The notes under the pieces: model-generated
The model's input: only the letters and a program-made list of their open reading frames with translations
Database searches by the model: none
What the model was told of the DNA's origin: nothing
IMG/VR virus record: IMGVR_UViG_3300025736_000026
Location: 1-61,347 of that record
From: a virus
Taxonomy: Duplodnaviria; Caudoviricetes
Length of the DNA: 61,347 bases
Direction: 5' to 3' (one strand)
Translations under genes and position numbers: made by a program
In this document: positions 7,109-41,070 of the stretch, piece after piece
How the letters are laid out: every line of letters starts with the position of its first letter
How positions within the stretch are numbered: the stretch's first letter is position 1

Positions 7109-8422
7109 ATGGCTACCGAAGAACAAATAGAGTGCTTAGACAAAGAGATTGAATACCAAACTAACTATAAGGTAATGGGGCGCGCTAAAGGTGTTTTCAC
7201 CGAGGCGCAGTTGATAGCTGTTAAGACATATTTAGAAATGGGTTTTACAGGTTCTAAGATAGCAAAGCTTACAGGTGTTCCTCAAGATTCTGTTTACAAA
7301 TTAAACGCTGGTAAATTTGGACGTTTGCACGAAGTAGCAACGGATCCCGAACTTAAAAAACATTGGAATACAAAACGTAAGCATTTTATTGATGTAGCTT
7401 ATGAAAAAATTGAATTGATGTTAGCAGCCGTTGATGCTGATAAAGCCAAATCTGCCAATCTTAAAGATACAGTCGCTTCTATAGCAACCCTCGTACAGCA
7501 AATTGTTAATATGGTGGGAAGTACTAAACAAACAGTTGAAACGACTGAAGAGGCTGGTATAGTTAAAAACATGGCAGATAGTACTTTAGATGCGTTTATA
7601 ACTTCTGCGACAAAAACTTTAGGAGACGGCGGTGGAGTCATGCTGCGTAGAACAATCAAAAAGACCGTTGAGGAAAGCGCGGGGTTCAATGACGCCTCCG
7701 GCGCCGCAGCCAGTTTCCCTGGAGAACCCAACGATAGAGACACTGGAGAACCCAACGATAGAGACACTGGAGAACCCAACGATAGAGACACTGGAGAAGC
7801 CAGCGATAGAGACACTGGAGAACCCAACGGAGAAGCCCAGGAAAAAGCAACCGCGCTCCTCAGCACCACCCCTTCCGCCGGAGAAGCCGCTGGATACGAA
7901 TTTAGTGCAGGCGATCGAGGACATCCTAACGGGCAAGACGGAACATCTGAGCAAGAGCTTACTCGAGGACCTAGTGAGTCAGAAGCTATCAGCGGAGGAG
8001 GCGGTAGCCCAGATAGATGCTCCCCCGCCCAAGACTCTGACGCACAAAGTGGAAGCGGAGATGGAGATCGAGGAACCCACGTACTTGAAGAGCATCTACG
8101 ACCTGACGATAGAGCAGAAAGAGGGTCTAACTCGAGAGAAACAGAAGAGTCTGATACATTCGCTAAATACAAAGATGTGGAGGGCGTACAAGAAAGAGCT
8201 GGACAAGAGAACTCGTGCGCAATCACGCCGCCGAGCGAATCTGAGCTTCGGGGAACAGATAGACAAAAGTTCCGAGCCGCTGTCAAAACTGTCTCCAGTG
8301 GAGCTGGGCACCCACTTGATAAAGAACCCATCGACCCCGACTCAGACGGAAGCGGGTGCACTCCGGTTCTTGAAAATGCAGGAGACTACGAATCAAAAGC
8401 GCCTGTTAGCGCAAGCGCTTGA
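7109..8422 (+). CDS. putative terminase small subunit with long overprinted C-terminal extension
   Basis: N-terminal HTH (GFTGSKIAKLTGVPQDSVYKL) and helical region, directly upstream of TerL; C-terminal ~245 aa overlap TerL in another frame. Confidence 0.65.
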   Translation: MATEEQIECLDKEIEYQTNYKVMGRAKGVFTEAQLIAVKTYLEMGFTGSKIAKLTGVPQDSVYKLNAGKFGRLHEVATDPELKKHWNTKRKHFIDVAYEKIELMLAAVDADKAKSANLKDTVASIATLVQQIVNMVGSTKQTVETTEEAGIVKNMADSTLDAFITSATKTLGDGGGVMLRRTIKKTVEESAGFNDASGAAASFPGEPNDRDTGEPNDRDTGEPNDRDTGEASDRDTGEPNGEAQEKATALLSTTPSAGEAAGYEFSAGDRGHPNGQDGTSEQELTRGPSESEAISGGGGSPDRCSPAQDSDAQSGSGDGDRGTHVLEEHLRPDDRAERGSNSRETEESDTFAKYKDVEGVQERAGQENSCAITPPSESELRGTDRQKFRAAVKTVSSGAGHPLDKEPIDPDSDGSGCTPVLENAGDYESKAPVSASA

Positions 8423-9785
8423 TGAAAGATTAAAAAGGCAGGCCCATAATGATATCGACGCATTCTGCTTATACGTATTCGGATGGGAAAACGACTGGTT
8501 CCATCGAGAGTGGCATAAGGCTGTCGATAAAACCCCCTATACCCTTATTATCTCACCACGCGATCATGGAAAATCTTCTCAAATGTCAGTGGCCCGCGTT
8601 CTCTACGAACTCGGTAAAAACCCAAACCTCAGAGTTAAAATCGTCTCCCAAAGTGATGATAGAGCCTCCAATCTCCTCTCCGAAATTGTTGAACATATCC
8701 GTACCAATAAAAGATTACATGTCATATTTCCAGATATGCGGCCTGCACAAGGTAAACCATGGACGCAACATAAAATATATATACAAAGGCAGCTTATCTC
8801 CAAGGATCCATCTATTGAATCCCTTGGAATTCTTAGTACTGCAACCGGTGCTAGGGCAGACCTCATCGTCTTCGATGATGTTGTTGATTTCCGAAATGCA
8901 ATCCAAAATCCAAAATTACGTGATGTTGTCAAAGAAGCTTTCTTCTCTGTCTGGGTCAACCTACTCGAAGCGAGTGGAAGACTCATTTACATCTGTACAC
9001 TCTGGCATAGAGATGACTTATCACACGCACTTATTACAATGGATGCATACAATACAGTATTTTATTCAATTCCCGCAGGCAGCTTCGATCCCATCTGGGA
9101 AGAGCATTGGCCTCGAGAAGCTTTGGAAAAAAGATGTGAGGAGATAGGATTACGTGAATTCGACCGATCGTTCAGAAACATTGCTCTATCTGCAGAAGAT
9201 ACGCTCTTCAATGAGGAGTTTATCAAATCTTGCTATGTCGCTACAGAATGCCCCTCGGGACTTAAATTGTTCGCGGGAGTCGATCTCGCTGCAGGATTTG
9301 GTAAAAAGGCAAAGTACAACGTCCTCTTCACCCTCGGAGTCGATAGAATAGGCAGGAAGTGGCGTAAAGAAATTTTGAGGGGGAAATTTACTTCTCCTCA
9401 ATTTGCGAAGTTAATTATTAGTGCTTATGATAGATTACATCATCAAGTGATAATGGTTGAAAATAATGCATATCAACAAGCAATGATTGATTGGTTCGGC
9501 GAGTTAGGAAGAAAAGATGTACCCATAAAGGGATTTACGACTGGTAAGAATAAGCTGGACCTTAATATAGGTTTACCCAGTATCGCAGTAGAGTTTCAAA
9601 ATAAAGCGTGGGCGATACCGAGAGCTCAGAAACATGCTCCAACCTGTTTATGTAACGATTGTATCTGGATCAACGAGTTAACATCGTATCCAATAGGTAA
9701 AACATCCGATATCATCATGGCGCAGTGGTTGGCGCGAGAAGGTGCTCGTAAGTTTATGAATTTTGGTGGTTATGCTACATGGTAA
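7689..9785 (+). CDS. terL: terminase large subunit with N-terminal extension
   Basis: Walker A SPRDHGKS, GARADLIVFDD Walker B, ICTLWH coupling motif, nuclease GVDLA and VENNAYQ; start ATG 7689 is uncertain. Confidence 0.93.
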   Translation: MTPPAPQPVSLENPTIETLENPTIETLENPTIETLEKPAIETLENPTEKPRKKQPRSSAPPLPPEKPLDTNLVQAIEDILTGKTEHLSKSLLEDLVSQKLSAEEAVAQIDAPPPKTLTHKVEAEMEIEEPTYLKSIYDLTIEQKEGLTREKQKSLIHSLNTKMWRAYKKELDKRTRAQSRRRANLSFGEQIDKSSEPLSKLSPVELGTHLIKNPSTPTQTEAGALRFLKMQETTNQKRLLAQALDERLKRQAHNDIDAFCLYVFGWENDWFHREWHKAVDKTPYTLIISPRDHGKSSQMSVARVLYELGKNPNLRVKIVSQSDDRASNLLSEIVEHIRTNKRLHVIFPDMRPAQGKPWTQHKIYIQRQLISKDPSIESLGILSTATGARADLIVFDDVVDFRNAIQNPKLRDVVKEAFFSVWVNLLEASGRLIYICTLWHRDDLSHALITMDAYNTVFYSIPAGSFDPIWEEHWPREALEKRCEEIGLREFDRSFRNIALSAEDTLFNEEFIKSCYVATECPSGLKLFAGVDLAAGFGKKAKYNVLFTLGVDRIGRKWRKEILRGKFTSPQFAKLIISAYDRLHHQVIMVENNAYQQAMIDWFGELGRKDVPIKGFTTGKNKLDLNIGLPSIAVEFQNKAWAIPRAQKHAPTCLCNDCIWINELTSYPIGKTSDIIMAQWLAREGARKFMNFGGYATW
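7721..7828 (+). repeat. 24-bp tandem repeat, about 4.5 copies, in the dual-coding region
   Basis: GGAGAACCCAACGATAGAGACACT; reads GEPNDRDT in one frame and LENPTIET in the other. Confidence 0.95.
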
Positions 9786-30672: not shown

Positions 30673-31239
30673 ATGAGCCTTTTAACAAGTGCTCAATTTC
30701 AACAATTTTTATCCGTTGCGGGCGAGACAATGTCTGTTGCTGATATTGCTGTAGTTACTGATGTATCTGAATCCCGCGTAGATAGTTTATGCGGACGTGA
30801 ATTTTTATTACACTGGGAGAATGAGACTATTGAAGTTGCGCCTTGGGATACGCGGCGTTACCAGATAAAGACGAATAATTATCCTATCATAGCTAGTTCG
30901 GTTATGCTGACTAATACTAGTGCGCTTATTACAAATGATAATTTAATTATTGAAGCTTCTACTGGTATAATTAAGCGGCGTTCAGATAATTATTATTTTG
31001 ATGTGGGCCGCGATGCTATTCTATTAATGTATCAAAATGGTTATGCATCCGGAGAAGCTCCGAAAGATTTACAGTATTTGATATACAAAGTAGGTTACGC
31101 TATTAAGGCTATGCCAGGTGTAGTTTATCAAGCGGAAACTTCTGGCGATTATTCCTATAAAATGGCTAACGAAATGATTTTAAAGGGTCTCGATAGTATT
31201 GCATTAGCTATTGTAACAAAGTATAAAAAGGTAATTTGA
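30673..31239 (+). CDS. head-tail adaptor (gp6/gp15-like)
   Basis: VDSLCGREF, YQNGY...PKDL, ETSGDYSY. Confidence 0.75.
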   Translation: MSLLTSAQFQQFLSVAGETMSVADIAVVTDVSESRVDSLCGREFLLHWENETIEVAPWDTRRYQIKTNNYPIIASSVMLTNTSALITNDNLIIEASTGIIKRRSDNYYFDVGRDAILLMYQNGYASGEAPKDLQYLIYKVGYAIKAMPGVVYQAETSGDYSYKMANEMILKGLDSIALAIVTKYKKVI

Positions 31240-31843: not shown

Positions 31844-34171
31844 ATGAAGTACAGCGTAGTTATTCCCACAATTGACGGAGTACGTTTACTCTCCGAATCC
31901 CTTCCGCGTATCTTTATCCATACGCAAGATTTTGAAGTTATCGTCGTCGATAACGGTAGCACGGATGGTACCGAAGGTTATATCAACGATCTATCCAAGC
32001 AACATTCTAACCTTAAATATATACGCTTCGATACGAATAAAGGTTTCGCGGGCGCCTGTAACGCGGGTATGCAAATGGCTCAGGGAGCCTTTATTATACT
32101 CTTGAATAACGACGCCTTAGTTACACCTAATTGGACGTCCCAGATGTTTACATCTATGAGGCGTTTCGAAAAGAAAACGGGCCTCCGTATAGGCTTAGTA
32201 GGCCCTGCAACAAATTTTGCGGGAGGGCGTCAAGCTGTTCCGAATGTAAAATACGACATCGCAGCTCTGGATGAGTTCTCGATAGAATTTCATAAACGTA
32301 ACATCAGCCAGGTCGATGAAGCCGGTTTTTTATCAGGCTTTTGTTTAATGTTCAAACGTGCAGTTATGGAAGACGTAGGTCTTCTAGACGAACGTTTTTT
32401 TCCGGGAGGTTATGAAGATAATGATTTTTTACTGCGCGCGAATGAATCCGGCTGGTACGGTTTAATTGATGGCTCCACGTTCGTTCATCATCACGGTTCG
32501 CAAACTCTCCGTAGAGATGAATTTAAGGATTCTGAGGGTGGGTTGGCTCCTCGAAATATCTTCTTGGATAAGTGGACGAAAAAGAATGCGGGACCTAAAA
32601 AGCTTGTAGGTATTTATCGGGTTAAGGGTCCCGATCCATACTTTACAACTAGTTTGCAGAAAGCTTCCGAATTCTGCGATGAAATTGCCGTATTGGTCGA
32701 CAATCCCCTCGCAGGCGATAGATCGGTAGAAATTACGAAAAAGTTTCCCAAAGTTACGCGTACAGAAATTACCGATAGGGAATTTGACGAACGGCGCGAT
32801 CGTAATCAACTCGTACAAATGGCTTACGATATGGAGGCCGACTGGGTTATATCTATCGATGATGATGAAGTCTTCGAGGATAAATTCGATCGTGCGTACG
32901 TAGATCGTTTGATGCACCCACCTAATCCGCATGTAAAAATGTACGGATTTCATTGGAGAACTTTCTTTGATGGTACGGAGCGTTTTCGTGTAGATGGGAC
33001 TTTCGGAAAAATGGCTGGATTCCGCATGTATAAAGCAGAGCCTGGTAGAAAAATCTTCTCCGGAACCGATAAAGGATTTCACTGCGGTAATATTGCCCTT
33101 TCTGCCCGCGATTGTGCTCGCTGGACAAATATTCGTATAAAGCATTACGGATATTGTACTCCTGAAAAGTGTATGCGTAAGTATAAATTTTACGAGCACG
33201 CCGATACTGAAAAGACCGCGGGTCTCATCGGTGCAGAAGATTATTCACACCTCATACAACGTAAAATGATTACATATCCCTGGGTAGAAAATGATTCTCT
33301 TTCTTTGGTAATATGTGTGCGTAATGGGGGCCATAAGCTTTGGGAGTTATTCGATCAAGTCGGTTATTTTGCCGATGAGATTATTTTTGGCGATAATCAA
33401 TCTACTGATGACTCTGTTAAAACAGCGAAACTTTTTAAATCAAAAATAATACCCGTGAAATTTGAAGATGATTTCAGTAAATTAAAGAATCAAGTAATTG
33501 AGAAAGCTTCTAAGGATTGGATTTTACTTATGGATTGGGATGAAACTTTCGTACACGCCGAAATTCCTTCCATACGTAAGATGATGGATAACGATTGTGA
33601 TGGGTATATGTTTCCCGTATACAACCACCAACCTGGGGGAGCTGTATCACTTTCCGAAGCTGTAAGGCTTTTTCGTAATATACCCACAATGCGTTATACC
33701 GGGCGTGTACACGAAAATTTTGATGCCGCAATGCATGCAAATCTTGTTAGCATATTGCGCACGGATATGATTTTACATCATCACGGATTTCTTTCAGACG
33801 CAAAACGTCTCGATGGCAAGTTGAATCTTTATGAGCGTTTGAATAAACTGCAGTTACAAGAAACCCCCGCAGATCCGCGAGCGGCATTTAATCTGGCTTT
33901 ACATTATATAAACGAGGGAAATCGTATTGAAGCGGAACGCCTTTTAAAATATGCTATTTCGTTAAATGAGAATTTTTATCAAGCACATAAAGAGCTGGGC
34001 CTATCTTATATAAGAAAAGGTCAAGCTTATGTAACGAATGCGAAGGCTTTAATTCCTGAAGAGCATCCTATGAAACAGATGCTAGAAAGATTAGTGCAGA
34101 GTATTACAGGTATAATCGGCGAACAGGATATCATTATAGGATCACGCGGACAAGATGGCCCAAAAGCTTAA
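31844..34171 (+). CDS. multi-domain GT2 glycosyltransferase with C-terminal TPR
   Basis: SVVIP/VVDNGSTDGT/LLNND/YEDND; second domain ADWVISIDDDE; third domain DNQSTD/DWILLMDWDE/GRVHE, then TPR helices. Confidence 0.9.
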   Translation: MKYSVVIPTIDGVRLLSESLPRIFIHTQDFEVIVVDNGSTDGTEGYINDLSKQHSNLKYIRFDTNKGFAGACNAGMQMAQGAFIILLNNDALVTPNWTSQMFTSMRRFEKKTGLRIGLVGPATNFAGGRQAVPNVKYDIAALDEFSIEFHKRNISQVDEAGFLSGFCLMFKRAVMEDVGLLDERFFPGGYEDNDFLLRANESGWYGLIDGSTFVHHHGSQTLRRDEFKDSEGGLAPRNIFLDKWTKKNAGPKKLVGIYRVKGPDPYFTTSLQKASEFCDEIAVLVDNPLAGDRSVEITKKFPKVTRTEITDREFDERRDRNQLVQMAYDMEADWVISIDDDEVFEDKFDRAYVDRLMHPPNPHVKMYGFHWRTFFDGTERFRVDGTFGKMAGFRMYKAEPGRKIFSGTDKGFHCGNIALSARDCARWTNIRIKHYGYCTPEKCMRKYKFYEHADTEKTAGLIGAEDYSHLIQRKMITYPWVENDSLSLVICVRNGGHKLWELFDQVGYFADEIIFGDNQSTDDSVKTAKLFKSKIIPVKFEDDFSKLKNQVIEKASKDWILLMDWDETFVHAEIPSIRKMMDNDCDGYMFPVYNHQPGGAVSLSEAVRLFRNIPTMRYTGRVHENFDAAMHANLVSILRTDMILHHHGFLSDAKRLDGKLNLYERLNKLQLQETPADPRAAFNLALHYINEGNRIEAERLLKYAISLNENFYQAHKELGLSYIRKGQAYVTNAKALIPEEHPMKQMLERLVQSITGIIGEQDIIIGSRGQDGPKA

Positions 34172-34637
34172 ATACATCGAAGGTTTAGTTCCTTTGCTAC
34201 TCAATTTTGCGATCCTAGAAGGATCCATTGATGATGAATTCGAAAAGGCCGAGTTACTTGCCCAAGAGTATACTTTTGAAAAAATGCGCGCGAATATAAG
34301 TCTTACATGTCACTCACTTAAAGATTTGAGGGCTTTAGATCATCCATACGCGAAGCGAGACCCTCAACCTATTCATAGACCTCAGTGGCTTGTTCACCTG
34401 CAAGACGGAACTCTTGTAAATGCTTTAGAAAAAACTGGTGAGGATTTATCTGATGGTACTAAAATACGTAGTGTAGGTATTGATGAAAGTAAAGCGCCTC
34501 ACGCAACTGATATTATTTATGGTACAAGTAAGATGGTGGGTCGCGATTTTATAACTGAGACCTTCGCGCAAGTTGAGTCCACATTAATGGGCTTTTACGA
34601 AGCAGCACAACAGAATGCTTTAAAGCACTTTGAATAG
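34155..34637 (+). CDS. putative tail completion / neck protein (HK97 gp10-like)
   Basis: APHA..IIYGTSKMVGRDFI motif. Confidence 0.65.
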   Translation: MAQKLKYIEGLVPLLLNFAILEGSIDDEFEKAELLAQEYTFEKMRANISLTCHSLKDLRALDHPYAKRDPQPIHRPQWLVHLQDGTLVNALEKTGEDLSDGTKIRSVGIDESKAPHATDIIYGTSKMVGRDFITETFAQVESTLMGFYEAAQQNALKHFE

Positions 34638-34647
34638 GAGATGTATT

Positions 34648-34932
34648 ATGTCTAAACCTAAAGCAAACGACACTCTACAGCTTGGAGCAAAAGATGTTCC
34701 GTGGAAATGCGAATGCGGTTTTTTGTTGGGTGTTTTATCTCCTGATAAAAATACTTTGCGTATTAAGTACAAAGATTTATACCTTTCCATCGAGGGTAGC
34801 GACGTGAAAGTTACCGAGCTTTGTAGAAGGTGTGCAACGCCTAATAAAATCGAAAGTAATTCTGGGGTACCTCAGGTACCTCAAGAACATGAAGAGGCTT
34901 TTAAGCAAACAGCTTCAAAGCCTAAGCAGTAA
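34648..34932 (+). CDS. Zn-ribbon (Com-like) protein
   Basis: WKCECGFLLG...CRRCATPN. Confidence 0.65.
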   Translation: MSKPKANDTLQLGAKDVPWKCECGFLLGVLSPDKNTLRIKYKDLYLSIEGSDVKVTELCRRCATPNKIESNSGVPQVPQEHEEAFKQTASKPKQ

Positions 34933-34964
34933 AATTCTAACACGCTGGAAGGAGGTGAGTTACT

Positions 34965-35051
34965 ATGGCGTTTAACGTACCCTCGTATAACACGGATCGA
35001 TTTTCATTCGGTCCGGGTATTTTGTATGTCGGGGCTGTCGGATCTACGCCT
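34965..35051 (+). CDS. major tail (tube) protein, exon 1
   Basis: AAGGAGGTGA RBS; MAFNVPSYNTDRFSFGPGILYVGAVGSTP; missed by ORF track. Confidence 0.85.
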
Positions 35052-35696
35052 CAAATTGGGGGCCTATAATCAGTGATGATTATAGCAAATCCTGCTCGGT
35101 CAGGGAAACCTAAAGGTGAGAGCCTAAGGCAATCCTGAGGAGTTAGAGTTGAGAAACTCGAAGCTTTGCAGAGACTTTCTTAAAGGAGACTGGCGTGTTT
35201 CAAAGTGTTCATATCGACAGTAAATTTGGTAAGTTTACATTACTACTAGATGCGGAAGACCTTGATATTACTAAAGTAGGTTTACGTGTACATAAAAATC
35301 GGGTCGCCTCAGGTTTAATTCTTTATATACCTACCGCGTCTAAGAACGGTTTTAACCGTTGTAATCAAGATTGTCGATTTGTACATCTACTCGTTGTAGA
35401 AAAGTGCTTGGGACGTTCGCTTAAAAAAGGTGAGGTTGTACATCATTTAAATGCTAATAACTTTGATTGTAGACGTTCAAATTTATTAGTATGCCGACAA
35501 AACGAACACGCAAGCTTGCATATACGAATGGGTATTATGTATGCCGAAGCAACTTTTCAGAGTCCTTTAAGCGGCGATCAATTTCAGCTTTTGCGCAAGC
35601 TGCTTGGTCGTAATACGCAGGACATCTCGGGAGTAAATTTAGTCATCTGAGATGGTGGTATAGTCCAACCCCCGGTGAAAGTCGGGATGTCAGTTG
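35052..35696 (+). mobile_element. group I self-splicing intron (645 nt)
   Basis: P1 with U.G at 5' splice site, P2 GUGA tetraloop, P3 TCCTGC/GCAGGA, P4 TCAGGG/TCCTGA, GCAGAGACT and TAGTCC (P7), P8, P9 GAAA loop, terminal G, P10; splicing restores the frame. Confidence 0.93.
35195..35650 (+). CDS. intron-encoded HNH homing endonuclease
   Basis: VHHLNANNFDCRRSNL...HASLH; own AAGGAG RBS. Confidence 0.88.
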   Translation: MFQSVHIDSKFGKFTLLLDAEDLDITKVGLRVHKNRVASGLILYIPTASKNGFNRCNQDCRFVHLLVVEKCLGRSLKKGEVVHHLNANNFDCRRSNLLVCRQNEHASLHIRMGIMYAEATFQSPLSGDQFQLLRKLLGRNTQDISGVNLVI

Positions 35697-36158
35697 TCAA
35701 TTGACATTGGCGCTGTAACAGTCGGAGCTAAGCTCGCGGTCACGCGAGAAATCCTTGAGTACAGACAGGGATCTCCCGCAACGGTTGTGAAGAAGTTCGC
35801 GGTTCAAGAAGCTGTTACATTGGATGTCACGGGTCTGGAATGGAACGTGCGTAACCTGGCCCTCGCGCTTGGCGCGGGAGTTACATCGTCTGATGTGTCC
35901 TTGGAAACGTTCGAATTCGGTGGGTCCATGGATGTGGATCAATACGCACTGAAATTCGTCCACGTTACCCCGGCAGGACAAACGGTTTCCATTTACCTGT
36001 GGAAAGCCGAAGCCGGTGGAGGCTTCGAGGTCGCTTTTGCGGAAGGACCTCATGAGTTCCCCATGACATTCGATGCGGTAGAATCTACTACTGATTGGAC
36101 CGGCGCAGCTGTCGCAAGTAACAAGCGGCTTATTAAATTGGTGTACGAAAAGGCTTAA
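35697..36158 (+). CDS. major tail (tube) protein, exon 2
   Basis: SIDIGAVTVGAKL...LEWNVRNLALALG...FPMTFDA; spliced product 182 aa. Confidence 0.85.
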   Translation, partial: SIDIGAVTVGAKLAVTREILEYRQGSPATVVKKFAVQEAVTLDVTGLEWNVRNLALALGAGVTSSDVSLETFEFGGSMDVDQYALKFVHVTPAGQTVSIYLWKAEAGGGFEVAFAEGPHEFPMTFDAVESTTDWTGAAVASNKRLIKLVYEKA

Positions 36159-37032: not shown

Positions 37033-40000
37033 ATGGCTTTAGGTATTTTAAAAATTAAGCTCGTCGCAGAGATTTGGGAGTTTATTAAGCGTTTTCGCAT
37101 AGCGAAAGTAACTATCCTATCTTTCTCTAAGATAGCTTCCGCCGCTATAGAAATCGTAAATACTAAATTGGGTAAGATGGGACTTATTGCGGCTGGAGTA
37201 TTCGCCGCAATGGCTGCGGGGGCTTTACTATTACGTAGTCAATTAAAACCTGCGATCGAGTTGCAGAAGGACATGGCTAATGTCGCAACTCTTTTACGTG
37301 ATGAGGCTGGGCAAGCTTTTTCTTTTGTTAATAAATGGGTAAAAACGTTCACGCAGAATGTTATAAATCTCTCGGCGGAGTTTGGAGAAACTGCCGCTGC
37401 GACTGCAAAAGGTCTTTATGATATTTTGTCCGCGACTATTCCGGCTTCTGATGCTTTGAATGTTTTGATTGTTTCTATGCGTGCTGCTAGAGCAGGTCTT
37501 ACTTCAACTGCTACAGCTACCAAAGCGATTATTTCCGTATTGATGGCCTATAATATGTCGTTCGACCAGGCCGCAAAGGTTTCTGATGTTTTCTTCGCAA
37601 CTATTCGAAGAGGTGTTACAACTTTTAAAGAACTCGCTCCTGTTATAGGTCGCGCTACCGCTACTGCTGCTGCTGCGGGTGTAAGTTTTGAAGAGCTAAT
37701 GGCCGCAGTTACTACAATGACTCGAGCAGGTTTAGATACGGGCGTGGCTATTACATCTATTAATCAAACGCTGTTACAGTTCTTTAGACCTACTGAAGAT
37801 GCTGTCAAGGCAGCCGCACGCCTGGGACTTAATTTAGATTTGACCACATTGCAGACTGAAGGCCTTGTTTCTGTAATGGAAAAATTGAGTGATCTTCTTC
37901 CCCAGCAGGTCGGACAGATGTTTAGACAGATGCGTGCATTGCGTGGTGTTAACGCTTTGATTCAGCAGGTATCGGGCTTCGCGGAAGATTATAATGTAAT
38001 GCTCCATGCCGCGGGGGAAACACAAGCTGCGTTTGAAAAGCAAGCAAAAGCTATGGCATTTTCGTTAGATCGACTAAAACAAAATTTCAATGCTCTCCGT
38101 ACGCAAGCTGCCTTACCCTGGTTAGGCACAGTAAAACGTTTAGTGGAGGGTCTTAATTCGCTTATGGGGGTTCTAAGGAAAATTACTCCAGCAGTCGCGC
38201 AATTTTCCGGCGATTTGTTATTCGCCGGCGCCGCCGCCGCAGGACTCACAGCGGCAGTGACACTTACTATAGCAATACTGAAAACACTCGGTATAGCATT
38301 TGCGCCTTTCTTATTATTGGTAGCTAAATTTGCTTTAATTGCTGCGGCTATATTTGTAGTTGTTAAAGCGTTAATTTCTTTAGAGAAGGAGCTTCAGTTA
38401 CTCTCGGGAGCTTTAGACGTATTTTATAGGACAATCACACTTGGTATAGCTGGTTTAGAAGATGTTACCGCTGCTGTTAAACTCTTAGGTAATTCTTTTA
38501 AATGGCTTTTACGTCAGATAGGTCTTGTACGTGAAGAGTGGTCCGAACTTGCGGCATCTAGAGAGTTAGCAAGCGCTTTAAAGGCCTTAACAGAAGAAGT
38601 TGATAATTCTGTAAAACCCACAGATGAGCTTCGCGATCGCTGGCAGTCGGTTATTGAATCTCTACAACGTGGCGCACCAATGACTTTAGAAGTTAAAAAG
38701 GCTTTGGATGATTTAGGCGCAACGTTAAAGAATACACCTGTATACACGGATGCGACAAAAGAAGGTTTACTTGAGCTAATAGATGCTGTGGGTGAGGTAG
38801 GTAGGGTTACGCCAGGTACAAAGGCTCGTATAGCTGAGATTTCCGCGGAATTGGCTGCAGGTAAAAAGAGTGGTTCTGACTATGTTCAAATGTGGGTAAG
38901 GCTTCTTGATGGTATATCAGAAGGTGATATGCTCACAGATAATTTCCGTAAATCTTTAGTTTCTATGTATACGGAACTCTCAAATTCTAAAGACGTTTCT
39001 GCAGGTCTTAAACAACAAATTTCTGAGCTTGTTTCGGAGTTATTAAATACGGCAAATGTATCCGACGTAGTACGAGCGAAGATGCGTGAAATGCAAAGGG
39101 CGTTCAATGAAGGTAGGGCTACTACCGCGCGTTTAAAAGCGTCTTTTGAGATACTCGGTATGGATATGCCCCAGCACTTAGCTGCTATTGCCAAAGAAGC
39201 TGATTGGGCTTTTAATACTATATGGCGCGACGGAGGTTACTCAGCTGAGAAATTATCCAAAATTTGGGTAGAAGGTTTTGTACCTAAGTTAATGAATGCT
39301 TTTGGAAAGATTCCCGAAAAGTATCGAGCTCTTACGCTACGTATGACCGGATATACATTAGAAATGATACAGGCTCTGTCTACGCTTGATGTTGACATGC
39401 CCTCAAAATTACAAAAAGAAGCTCGCGCAGCTGCCGCCGCGTTACTTATACTTATACAAGAAAATAGACGTCTTCCGGAAGATGCTCGTTTATCAGCCAA
39501 GGTTATCGGGGATGCTTGGGAAGAGGTTGTTGAAAAAATTGAAAGAGCCTTTGGGAGAGTACCTCCCGAATTTAATGCGTTGGCACAAGAGATTGCGAGT
39601 ATTTCAGCTGCTACTTTAAATAACTTTAGGGCCCTAGGAGAAGAGCCTCTTGATATATTACGTACGAAGGCCGATTCGATGCTTAAAGCTTTTGAGGCTC
39701 TTTATAATCTACGCGCGTCGGGCGAGCTTAATATAGATGAGTCACAAATTCGTGATCTTTGGGAGGGCGTACGTAAAGCTATTGAAGAGGCTTATGGAGC
39801 TTTTCCGGAGGAGTTATTAGATCGTATAAGAGAACTTCAGGAATTGTCTTCTAAGGTAATGGGTAGTCCGAAGCTCGTAGCCGATATGCGACAGCAGTTT
39901 GCCGAGTTAGCTGTTCAACTTGAAGTTGAAATGGATAAGTTACCTCCTGCCGCGCAAGAGATGTGGCGTAAAATGGTTCTTATACCTGAGATCGAGCAGC

Positions 40001-41070
40001 AGGCAGCTCTTAATACATGGAAAGATTTTATAGATCGTATTGAAGAGGGTATGACTGTAAAAGAGTGGGAAACCTATAAGCGTTTAAAGCCTATGATTAA
40101 AGGTTGGGAACGTGCGTTTAAAGATATACGTAACTTAGAAGATGTCTCAGCTGAAGATCGTTCTAAAGCCTTTACAAAATTACTCTCTCAAATCGAAGTT
40201 GCTGGCGGGAAGTATACAGATGTATGGCGAAGAGTTTACAGCGCTTTGCAATTAGTTAATGAATCTCAGGTACGTAGTTTTGAGGAAATCGTTAAAGATG
40301 TTTCTGTAGAAATACGCCGTGAATTGTCAAATGCTTTTGTAGATTTATATGAAGAATTATTCGAGCAAAGTCGAAAGTCATTAACTCTTGTACAGATGGA
40401 AGCTGATGAACGTAAGCGCTCTTTACGGGATCAACTCGTTGAGGGTAAAGTTACAACAGCGCGTTACTATCAGGAATTGGCTGAGTTAGACAGACAATAT
40501 ACAGAAGAGAAGAAAAAGTATATGAACAGTTTCCAGAAGTTCTATGTAACTATCTGGGACGGTATGAAAAAATATTGGATTAAACTTTTAAGTGAAATGC
40601 TCGCTGAGTGGATTACACAACAGCTTAAAATGATGGCAATGTCTCTTAAGCGTGCTATTGTTGAAATAGCTGCTGACTCGGCTGCGGCCAAAACGGGTGC
40701 TGTAAAAAGCGCTGCAGGGATTCCGTTTCCATTAAACCTAGTGGCTATTGGAGCTGCGGTTGCTGCGGTAACAGCTATTCTAGCTTCGGTTACGAAGTTC
40801 GCTGCAGGTGGTATTGTAACTAAGCCTATGTTAGGTATTATAGGCGAAGCAGGCCCCGAAGCTATTATACCTTTAGGACATCCATCCGCGAGGGGTTTAG
40901 GAGGCGCAAGATCTATAACTGTACATTATAACGATCAATTTGTATTCGAAGGTCCTTCTATGGTAGATGATCAGGAAGGCTGGGATCGTATTTATCGTGA
41001 TAAGGTATTACCTGCGAAGAGACGTAATTTAGAAGAGTTAAGAGATATTGCTGGAGAGAGTGTTGAGTGA
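37033..41070 (+). CDS. tape measure protein (TP901 family)
   Basis: 1345 aa, Ala-rich; AKGLYDILSA, GVTTFKELA, FAAGGIV...IGEAGPEAIIPL. Confidence 0.95.
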   Translation: MALGILKIKLVAEIWEFIKRFRIAKVTILSFSKIASAAIEIVNTKLGKMGLIAAGVFAAMAAGALLLRSQLKPAIELQKDMANVATLLRDEAGQAFSFVNKWVKTFTQNVINLSAEFGETAAATAKGLYDILSATIPASDALNVLIVSMRAARAGLTSTATATKAIISVLMAYNMSFDQAAKVSDVFFATIRRGVTTFKELAPVIGRATATAAAAGVSFEELMAAVTTMTRAGLDTGVAITSINQTLLQFFRPTEDAVKAAARLGLNLDLTTLQTEGLVSVMEKLSDLLPQQVGQMFRQMRALRGVNALIQQVSGFAEDYNVMLHAAGETQAAFEKQAKAMAFSLDRLKQNFNALRTQAALPWLGTVKRLVEGLNSLMGVLRKITPAVAQFSGDLLFAGAAAAGLTAAVTLTIAILKTLGIAFAPFLLLVAKFALIAAAIFVVVKALISLEKELQLLSGALDVFYRTITLGIAGLEDVTAAVKLLGNSFKWLLRQIGLVREEWSELAASRELASALKALTEEVDNSVKPTDELRDRWQSVIESLQRGAPMTLEVKKALDDLGATLKNTPVYTDATKEGLLELIDAVGEVGRVTPGTKARIAEISAELAAGKKSGSDYVQMWVRLLDGISEGDMLTDNFRKSLVSMYTELSNSKDVSAGLKQQISELVSELLNTANVSDVVRAKMREMQRAFNEGRATTARLKASFEILGMDMPQHLAAIAKEADWAFNTIWRDGGYSAEKLSKIWVEGFVPKLMNAFGKIPEKYRALTLRMTGYTLEMIQALSTLDVDMPSKLQKEARAAAAALLILIQENRRLPEDARLSAKVIGDAWEEVVEKIERAFGRVPPEFNALAQEIASISAATLNNFRALGEEPLDILRTKADSMLKAFEALYNLRASGELNIDESQIRDLWEGVRKAIEEAYGAFPEELLDRIRELQELSSKVMGSPKLVADMRQQFAELAVQLEVEMDKLPPAAQEMWRKMVLIPEIEQQAALNTWKDFIDRIEEGMTVKEWETYKRLKPMIKGWERAFKDIRNLEDVSAEDRSKAFTKLLSQIEVAGGKYTDVWRRVYSALQLVNESQVRSFEEIVKDVSVEIRRELSNAFVDLYEELFEQSRKSLTLVQMEADERKRSLRDQLVEGKVTTARYYQELAELDRQYTEEKKKYMNSFQKFYVTIWDGMKKYWIKLLSEMLAEWITQQLKMMAMSLKRAIVEIAADSAAAKTGAVKSAAGIPFPLNLVAIGAAVAAVTAILASVTKFAAGGIVTKPMLGIIGEAGPEAIIPLGHPSARGLGGARSITVHYNDQFVFEGPSMVDDQEGWDRIYRDKVLPAKRRNLEELRDIAGESVE

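Follow-up and report, generated by a model that had tools for sequence, protein, structure and literature searches.

How does a phage obtain its tail-tube protein from a gene that is interrupted after 29 codons? The question is raised by positions 34,965 to 36,158 of the window, by which the whole stretch of DNA analysed is meant (61,347 nucleotides (nt); IMG/VR record IMGVR_UViG_3300025736_000026), derived from an uncultured salt-lake phage of the Caudoviricetes in a lineage without cultured relative. Two coding pieces of one tail-tube gene are separated here by an insert of 645 nt, which carries an intact gene for an HNH endonuclease. Judged from the sequence, this insert is very probably a group I intron that is removed by splicing, as had been proposed in an earlier note made from the letters of the window alone.

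The tail-tube gene starts with the ATG at 34965, preceded at a spacing of 7 nt by AGGAGGTG (34950-57), and its first exon ends with ACG CCT at position 35051. The direct reading of the sequence agrees in this with the earlier note, which had given exon 1 as 34965-35051 with a strong Shine-Dalgarno sequence and 29 codons. The frame of exon 1 continues for five codons into the insert and is closed by TAA 35067-69, resulting in an open reading frame (ORF) of 34 amino acids (aa). The downstream piece is present as an ORF of 154 aa (TTG start at 35694, end at 36158), within which exon 2 opens with TCA ATT GAC directly after G35696. When 35051 is joined to 35697, the frame is maintained and 29 + 153 codons encode 182 aa. 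Two further intron-bearing alleles, L009 and L069, were available for comparison. The parts of the locus are:

34950 to 34957, plus strand: Shine-Dalgarno sequence of the tail-tube gene, AGGAGGTG (sequence reading; conserved in L009).
34965 to 35051, plus strand: tail-tube exon 1, 29 codons, ending ...GSTP with U35051 as last base (aligns to residues 1-29 of uninterrupted homologs).
35052 to 35696, plus strand: predicted group I intron, 645 nt, with the in-frame TAA 35067-69 (Rfam, energy fold, RNAalifold, covariation).
35195 to 35650, plus strand: HNH homing-endonuclease gene, GTG start, 151 aa (ORF, Pfam HNH_3, clusters).
35697 to 36158, plus strand: tail-tube exon 2, 153 codons and stop, opening with the palindrome TCAATTGA (sequence and homolog alignment).

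A search with the exon-2 protein gave 15 relatives among 372 candidates, 10 of them uninterrupted (181-191 aa). The full-length relatives open with a peptide matching exon 1; a lack of this sequence in tail-tube homologs, which had been named as evidence against splicing, was not seen in the 10 uninterrupted proteins. P0002 is 92% identical over exon 2, and its first 21 residues are the same as those of exon 1. Aligned with the homologs, the two exons meet at P/S without gap or overlap, and the proposed junction ...GSTP/SIDIGAV... in a protein of 182 aa is exactly the arrangement of the uninterrupted homologs, most of which, when full-length, keep a spacing of two residues from the conserved TP to D-[VI]-G. 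The syntenic phage contig L001 carries an uninterrupted 182-aa tail-tube gene in matching gene order (glycosyltransferase, two small ORFs, tail-tube gene, two small ORFs). Gene callers truncate the split gene, as had been expected: three database proteins (P0001, which is from the window, P0006 and P0008; 154-155 aa) have their first residue exactly at the exon-2 boundary. A further short form, P0042 (45% identical), begins at the same residue as these exon-2-only proteins. The split form was found on 10 contigs, and contigs of several DNA runs carry it; it is therefore not an assembly artefact. A library-wide search placed 219 representative clusters in the tail-tube family. No match was obtained for P0008 and P0042 in viral contigs, for the tail-tube alignment in genome contigs or for the tail-tube protein in the phage collection. 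Three homologs (P0050, P0055 and P0057) are 379-388 aa long and contain an insertion of about 200 residues without Pfam match after approximately residue 105; they are a decorated form of the tube protein.

The interrupted gene is accepted as encoding the tail-tube (major tail) protein of a siphovirus-type phage on the basis of a modelled fold, the Pfam and PHROG matches of a homolog and the gene position, and the assignment made in the earlier note is supported. The AlphaFold model of P0002, built with 14 sequences, reached a predicted local distance difference test value (pLDDT) of 74.5 and a predicted template modelling score (pTM) of 0.71. It gave 17 matches at E<=1e-3 in the PDB, almost all of them siphophage tail-tube proteins (best match, the tail tube of phage Mystique; others, SPR/DSR2 tube complexes, YSD1 and T5 pb6), and 89 matches at E<=1e-3 in BFVD, of which the named ones are mostly major tail or tail tube proteins. 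P0014 (45% identical) passes Pfam Phage_TTP_17 (29.9 bits, cut-off 27) and also matches several PHROGs labelled 'major tail protein'. The window exons and P0002 match PHROG 2175 alone, labelled 'protein with Ig domain'; exon 2 enters this profile at position 29 and full-length P0002 at position 3. Upstream of the tail-tube gene, a head-tail adaptor (30673-31239) and a weak tail-completion-like match (34155-34637) are located; downstream, two small (chaperone) ORFs are followed by a tape-measure gene of 1345 aa (37033-41070).

Within the insert, a complete set of group I helices could be placed:

35048 to 35063, plus strand: P1, 35048-52/35059-63, with the U35051-G35060 wobble at the 5' splice site and the guide loop 35053-58 (identical in L009).
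35064 to 35085, plus strand: P2 hairpin, 9 pairs (folds; one A-U to G-U change in L009).
35090 to 35095, plus strand: P3 5' strand, partner 35617-35622 across 520 nt (Rfam, folds; C-G to U-A in L009).
35100 to 35138, plus strand: P4 35100-05/35133-38, P5 35109-10/35128-29 and P5a 35114-17/35122-25 (both-side changes in P4 and P5a).
35139 to 35167, plus strand: P6 35139-44/35162-67 and P6a 35146-50/35155-59 with GAGA loop (4 both-side pair changes over three alleles).
35171 to 35176, plus strand: P7 5' strand in the conserved CAGAGACU element, A35172 bulged, partner 35662-35666 (invariant in three alleles).
35179 to 35191, plus strand: 5' strand of a P7.1-type helix, with the HNH ribosome-binding site AAGGAG (35183-88), partner 35559-35571 (folds, covariation).
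35559 to 35571, plus strand: 3' strand of the P7.1-type helix, within the HNH gene, encoding FQSPL (covariation).
35574 to 35611, plus strand: P7.2-type hairpin, 35574-81/35604-11 and 35585-90/35597-602, within the HNH gene (folds, covariation).
35617 to 35622, plus strand: P3 3' strand, within the HNH gene (Rfam, covariation).
35623 to 35654, plus strand: P8 hairpin with the HNH stop codon (35648-50) in its 3' strand (Rfam, covariation).
35662 to 35666, plus strand: P7 3' strand in the conserved AUAGUCC element (Rfam, covariation).
35671 to 35686, plus strand: P9 hairpin, loop GAAA (both-side changes in 5 of 6 pairs over three alleles).
35696, plus strand: omega G, the terminal G of the intron (G then exon also in L009 and L069; junction set by the homolog alignment).

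The order P1-P2-P3-P4-P5-P6-P7-P7.1-P7.2-P3'-P8-P7'-P9 is an IA-like layout. P7.1 and P7.2 lie between P7 and P3' in subgroup IA (PMC3984707, PMC3428280; the papers cited here are represented by excerpts), and two covarying helices occupy this place in the window, the first of them long-range and closing the ORF loop. Their linker is CG, not the G-U-A given for IA2 in the excerpt of PMC3428280. P7 is formed by 35171 and 35173-76 with 35662-66; CAGAGACU and AUAGUCC align to the Rfam consensus, are both invariant in the three alleles and constitute, with the bulged base, the predicted guanosine-binding site. Most of the architecture drawn in the earlier note was recovered: the U.G pair of P1 at the splice site lies in a helix of 5 pairs, P2, P3, P7, P8 and P9 were returned by the energy fold, RNAalifold or the Rfam alignment, and the G assigned as omega precedes exon 2 in the other two alleles as well. 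For P4, the 5' strand (35100-05) stood, and the 3' strand, given as 35132-37, had to be corrected to 35133-38.

Comparative data provide the stronger support for a ribozyme. L009, on a metagenome contig, has an intron of 650 nt, an exon protein approximately 76% identical and an HNH protein 63% identical (95/151) to those of the window. Between these two alleles all 88 pairs are kept, including the P7 pseudoknot (176/176 cells paired), with 11 pairs changed on both sides and 8 on one side; in controls with slid partners, 35-49% of the cells were paired and 0-1 both-side changes were obtained. L069 is richer in GC, its HNH protein is 53% identical and the contig end cuts the intron inside P5. 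Over the three alleles (P6, P6a, P7, P7.1, P7.2, P8 and P9), 56 of 56 pairs are kept and none broken, with 24 both-side changes compared to 0-5 in the slid-partner control. A G stands directly before exon 2 in all three, and the two alleles that include the 5' end (window and L009) agree in the U-G pair of the 5' splice site and in the place of the stop, five codons in. P7 is without covariation support, since it never varies among the alleles. The minimum-energy fold of 671 nt recovers P1, P2, the P3 of 520-nt range, P4-P6, P7.1, P7.2, P8 and P9; its z-score is -4.15, and none of 20 shuffles folded as well.

Rfam evidence for the intron, which from these sequences appears weaker than the comparative evidence, was obtained with 34900-35800 searched alone: RF00028 (Intron_gpI) aligned over model positions 1-253 at 35042-35687 with 30.2 bits (E 1.2e-5 in the 901-nt search). 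P1, P2, P3, P4-P6, CAGAGACU, P3', P8, AUAGUCC and P9 were placed at the positions proposed earlier, and 440 unaligned bases (35177-35616) were treated as an insertion. The check with a group I model that had been suggested thus returned a full-length alignment, with a score below the gathering cut-off of 50. This cut-off is an annotation threshold, not a biological feature, and endonuclease-bearing phage introns pose the same score problem (PMC11878797, excerpt). No other Rfam family was listed at the intron region at E<=10. Searches of L006-L009 together and of L010 and L011 gave no match at E<=1. A 19-nt P2/J2-3 word had 0 exact matches in the viral contig collection; a degenerate 18-position J8/7-P7' word was found at 57 loci (L012-L068), which by blastn showed no likeness to the intron beyond that word. 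The 5' half of the ribozyme had one match of 40 nt in the phage collection (window 35100-35139, P4-P5; 87.5% identical). This match underlies the DNA-polymerase gene of Aeromonas phage vB_AsaP_MQM1 and may be another group I intron.

Several observations weigh against the reading of the locus as a tail-tube gene with a spliced group I intron. The RF00028 match lies under the cut-off and was found in the local search only; the intron was found neither in the Rfam search of the whole window, at gathering or at E<=1, nor in a genome search. The L009 alignment to Rfam is placed differently (931-1150), and the 5'-truncated L069 intron gave no match at E<=1. The structure used for the pair counts was derived partly from the same sequences, the helix coordinates of L069 were set by eye, and covariation covers three alleles, with P1-P5 resting on two sequences since L069 lacks them. 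P10, proposed from exon 2, owes its 6 pairs in the window to the palindrome with which exon 2 opens; with approximately 3 pairs in L009 it is not conserved and gives weak support. The window exons and P0002 match no Pfam family. Among the sequencing runs listed for the locus, there is no RNA run that would bear on splicing, the exact junction or self-catalysis, and no intron-less joint 35051/35697 was seen in contigs of four DNA runs, which as contigs cannot show absence.

Some of these points would also fit an intron that has decayed to a splicing-dead relic, with the tail-tube gene a pseudogene in a defective phage or a dead-end variant. The sub-threshold Rfam score, a record estimated to be only about 53% complete and the status of splicing as a prediction speak for such a relic. 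It is nevertheless improbable, as compensating changes preserve all helices among alleles with HNH proteins of 53-63% identity, every copy has both exons and the HNH gene intact, and a dead variant does not fit the occurrence of the split form on 10 contigs and in contigs of many DNA runs.

The HNH gene is itself well preserved, in accordance with the claim that the intron carries such a gene. Pfam HNH_3 was matched with 32.9 bits in the window (cut-off 24.8) and 44.4 bits in L069. Relatives form 10 clusters of 147-153 aa with 45-81% identity to the window protein, in which H83, H84, N96, H105 and H109 are invariant; the start codons of the three copies are GTG, TTG and GTG. Outside the overlap with the ribozyme, differences between window and L009 are concentrated at third codon positions (62/121 vs 38/122 and 24/121), and the HNH protein is therefore under purifying selection. 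Within the overlap they are spread evenly over the codon positions (5/29, 8/30, 6/30). Searches of viral contigs with the HNH protein and the HNH alignment gave only two chance matches (L010 and L011), in a tail-fibre-like gene.

The position of the HNH gene differs somewhat from what had been described. It does not simply lie between P7 and P3': the long-range helix 35179-91/35559-71 closes the ORF as a loop of approximately 370 nt, followed by the hairpin 35574-35611 and then P3'. That the last HNH codons double as ribozyme core holds true for P3' and P8, and the shared part is larger, since the P7.1-type helix and the hairpin 35574-35611 use HNH codons as well; it amounts to 92 nt (35559-35650), comprising P7.1', P7.2, P3' and most of P8. 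In the P7.1-type helix, 6 of 11 pairs change on both sides over the three alleles. Part of its 5' strand is the HNH ribosome-binding site, which reads AAGGAG (35183-88) in the window and GAGGAAG in L069, and its 3' strand encodes FQSPL, invariant in the 10 HNH clusters. FQSPL, together with RNTQ (linker and P3'), represents the most conserved non-catalytic residues of the protein, and the L069 peptide is FQSSS exactly at the bases where P7.1 changed on both strands.

A free-standing HNH gene might also have been inserted without any splicing, so that the pieces of 34 and 154 aa (TTG 35694) cooperate or the C-terminal one is used alone. Both pieces are present as ORFs, gene callers report the 154-aa product, and T4-type phages provide known cases of genes that an inserted homing endonuclease has split. 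Such an arrangement is very improbable here: the HNH flanks form a complete group I core that covaries in three alleles, no ribosome-binding site precedes TTG 35694, the bases at this 'start' differ in L009 and L069 (the G before the exon is kept in all three), and the 29 N-terminal residues rank among the most conserved of the family in the homolog alignment. For removal of the insert in another way (intein, translational bypass or group II intron), nothing speaks beyond the interruption of the gene, and the sequence effectively refutes it. Against an intein stand the stop of the exon-1 frame five codons in and the start codon and ribosome-binding site that the HNH gene possesses for itself. 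The known case of bypass, T4 gene 60, spans a gap of 50 nt, far short of the 645 nt here. For a group II intron, a reverse transcriptase is missing, as the one ORF of any size encodes an HNH protein, and Rfam listed no further family for the region at E<=10.

For a group I intron at this site, the following course of events is proposed. Late mRNA would need the intron removed to encode the 182-aa protein with its P/S junction. Five codons past the splice site, the in-frame TAA would halt the ribosome, and the RNA would then fold; ribosome arrest at an early stop has been argued to let the core fold in bacterial introns (PMC3984707, PMC2504315, excerpts). Exogenous guanosine would attack after U35051, and the freed exon 1 would attack after G35696. 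By analogy with HNH enzymes encoded by other introns, the HNH enzyme may cut or nick intron-less tail-tube alleles of co-infecting relatives, upon which the intron would be copied in. L004, L006 and L007 contain candidate target sites of this kind, judged by their intron-less sequence. In L007 (3001-3545), the bases at the insertion site (ACGCCT then TCA) equal the exon ends of the intron-bearing alleles, and this intron-less tail-tube gene has an early one-base frame shift, through which the starting frame meets a stop after approximately 23 codons. In salt-lake metagenomes, the window allele is accompanied by an allele of the L009 type, as seen in contigs of DNA runs. Exon bases beside the intron are 82% alike between window and L009, compared to 61-74% in distal exon 2; this likeness was not counted as co-conversion in favour of homing, because conservation of the protein is also highest in this part. 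Since no intron-less form of the phage was seen in the four DNA runs, ongoing homing is a conjecture.

Because the HNH ribosome-binding site is a strand of P7.1 and the last 92 nt of the gene are ribozyme helices, splicing and HNH translation might exclude each other. The folded ribozyme would hide the HNH start, and a translated HNH gene would unfold the ribozyme, so that a folded RNA allows no HNH start and a translated HNH gene no splicing. Such a mutually exclusive switch is conceivable, with the balance tilting slightly against it. If true, RNA pairing and not enzyme function would fix the most conserved HNH peptide, FQSPL (FQSSS where the helix changes), and tail production would be tied to the life cycle of the intron, in a gene whose product each virion needs in hundreds of copies.

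The L069 locus contains a second intervening sequence of approximately 1040 nt in the tail-tube gene (L069:700-1800), after ...RGLE and before WNL.... It includes a gene for a LAGLIDADG protein of 331 aa (787-1782; Pfam LAGLIDADG_2, 5.9e-14), whose 3' end extends into the following exon. However the junctions are placed, a U before the 5' splice site and a terminal G are never obtained together, and Rfam found no match in this insert. The 3.2-kb contig was binned in a Candidatus Woesearchaeota genome, and for so short a contig this is weak binning evidence. That the intron lineage also occurs in viruses of DPANN archaea is improbable, clearly less likely than the switch; if the binning is right, the lineage would reach archaeal viruses. 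Group I introns are reported in archaeal genomes themselves (PMC6125680, excerpt).

Elsewhere in the window, a protein of 775 aa with two glycosyltransferase regions is encoded within the head-tail module, between the adaptor and the tail genes (31844-34171), and is kept in L001. In the segment 7109-9785, two ORFs (7109-8422, 437 aa; 7632-9785, 717 aa) overlap by approximately 790 nt in different frames, and the large-terminase profile covers only residues 146-641 of the 717-aa ORF, which makes the start of the terminase gene ambiguous. With phages of several bacterial phyla, the large terminase shares only about 25% identity. No tRNA genes, looked for as a clue to the host, were found.

The tail-tube gene is mis-annotated wherever it is present: the three database proteins are cut to 154-155 aa, and default Rfam is blind to the intron. 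In virome pipelines, a hallmark gene will therefore appear without its N-terminus, and the ribozyme will go unnoticed. The locus adds an endonuclease-bearing, apparently still mobile intron to a short list in high-copy virion genes, and its approximately 90 nt under the double constraint of protein and ribozyme offer a clean natural example for the evolution of overlaps. The two different intervening sequences of L069 suggest that tail-tube genes are hit repeatedly, as is the case for Twort orf142.

In the earlier note, phage group I introns had been considered to be mostly known from DNA-metabolism, terminase and lysin genes. This is a fair statement, with which the excerpt of PMC11878797 agrees; only the remark of the note on novelty was overstated, because introns in tail-tube, tape-measure, capsid and minor-tail genes are already in print, as described in the excerpts cited below. 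Staphylococcus phage Twort has three introns in orf142, a gene later recognised as tail-tube (PMC11878797). These are likewise self-splicing group I introns in a phage tail-tube gene, and Twort orf142 shares with L069 the presence of more than one intervening sequence; Twort, however, is a myovirus of a low-GC Gram-positive host. Prophages of B. weihenstephanensis KBAB4 and B. cereus B4264 have a common group I intron in the tail-tube gene, and several further Bacillus cereus-group prophage introns are located in tape-measure genes (Tourasse and Kolsto 2008, PMC2504315). The tail-tube intron of this group resembles that of the window in its early intron stop codon and its insertion in a conserved part of the gene. 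It differs in that the excerpt describes it as being without complete endonuclease gene and judges it immobile, whereas the HNH gene of the window intron is intact and conserved. Among introns in highly expressed virion genes, those of the mycobacteriophages LittleE (capsid) and BAKA (minor tail) are spliced and were, like the window intron, recognised through intron-less relatives; LittleE differs in its LAGLIDADG-like gene on the opposite strand and BAKA in having, according to the same excerpt, no endonuclease (PMC3706429). Lactococcal phage Tuc2009 has a capsid-gene intron as well (PMC3706429).

With respect to architecture, the IA2 intron that lies within the DNA polymerase gene in cyanophage Pf-WMP3 (I-PfoP3I, PMC3428280) is similar in having P7.1 and P7.2 and an HNH frame that supplies ribozyme helices. 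Its ORF starts in P6a and spans P7, and the intron is described as lacking P2 (PMC3428280). In the window, by contrast, the ORF is located in the P7.1 loop and overlaps P7.1', P7.2, P3' and P8. No counterpart of the window intron or of its phage lineage was found in the phage collection. For the proposed switch, a parallel is the td intron of T4, in which the ribosome-binding site of I-TevI is occluded; according to the title of a 2010 paper by Gibb and Edgell, cited in PMC3984707, endonuclease translation is held back so that the ribozyme can fold. I-TevI differs as a GIY-YIG enzyme encoded in the P6 region of an intron in a nucleotide-metabolism gene, and the occluding helix of the window intron would itself be a ribozyme element. 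The category of phage introns to which the window intron belongs is thus already established, and the window intron is a further case of it, in a lineage without cultured relative.

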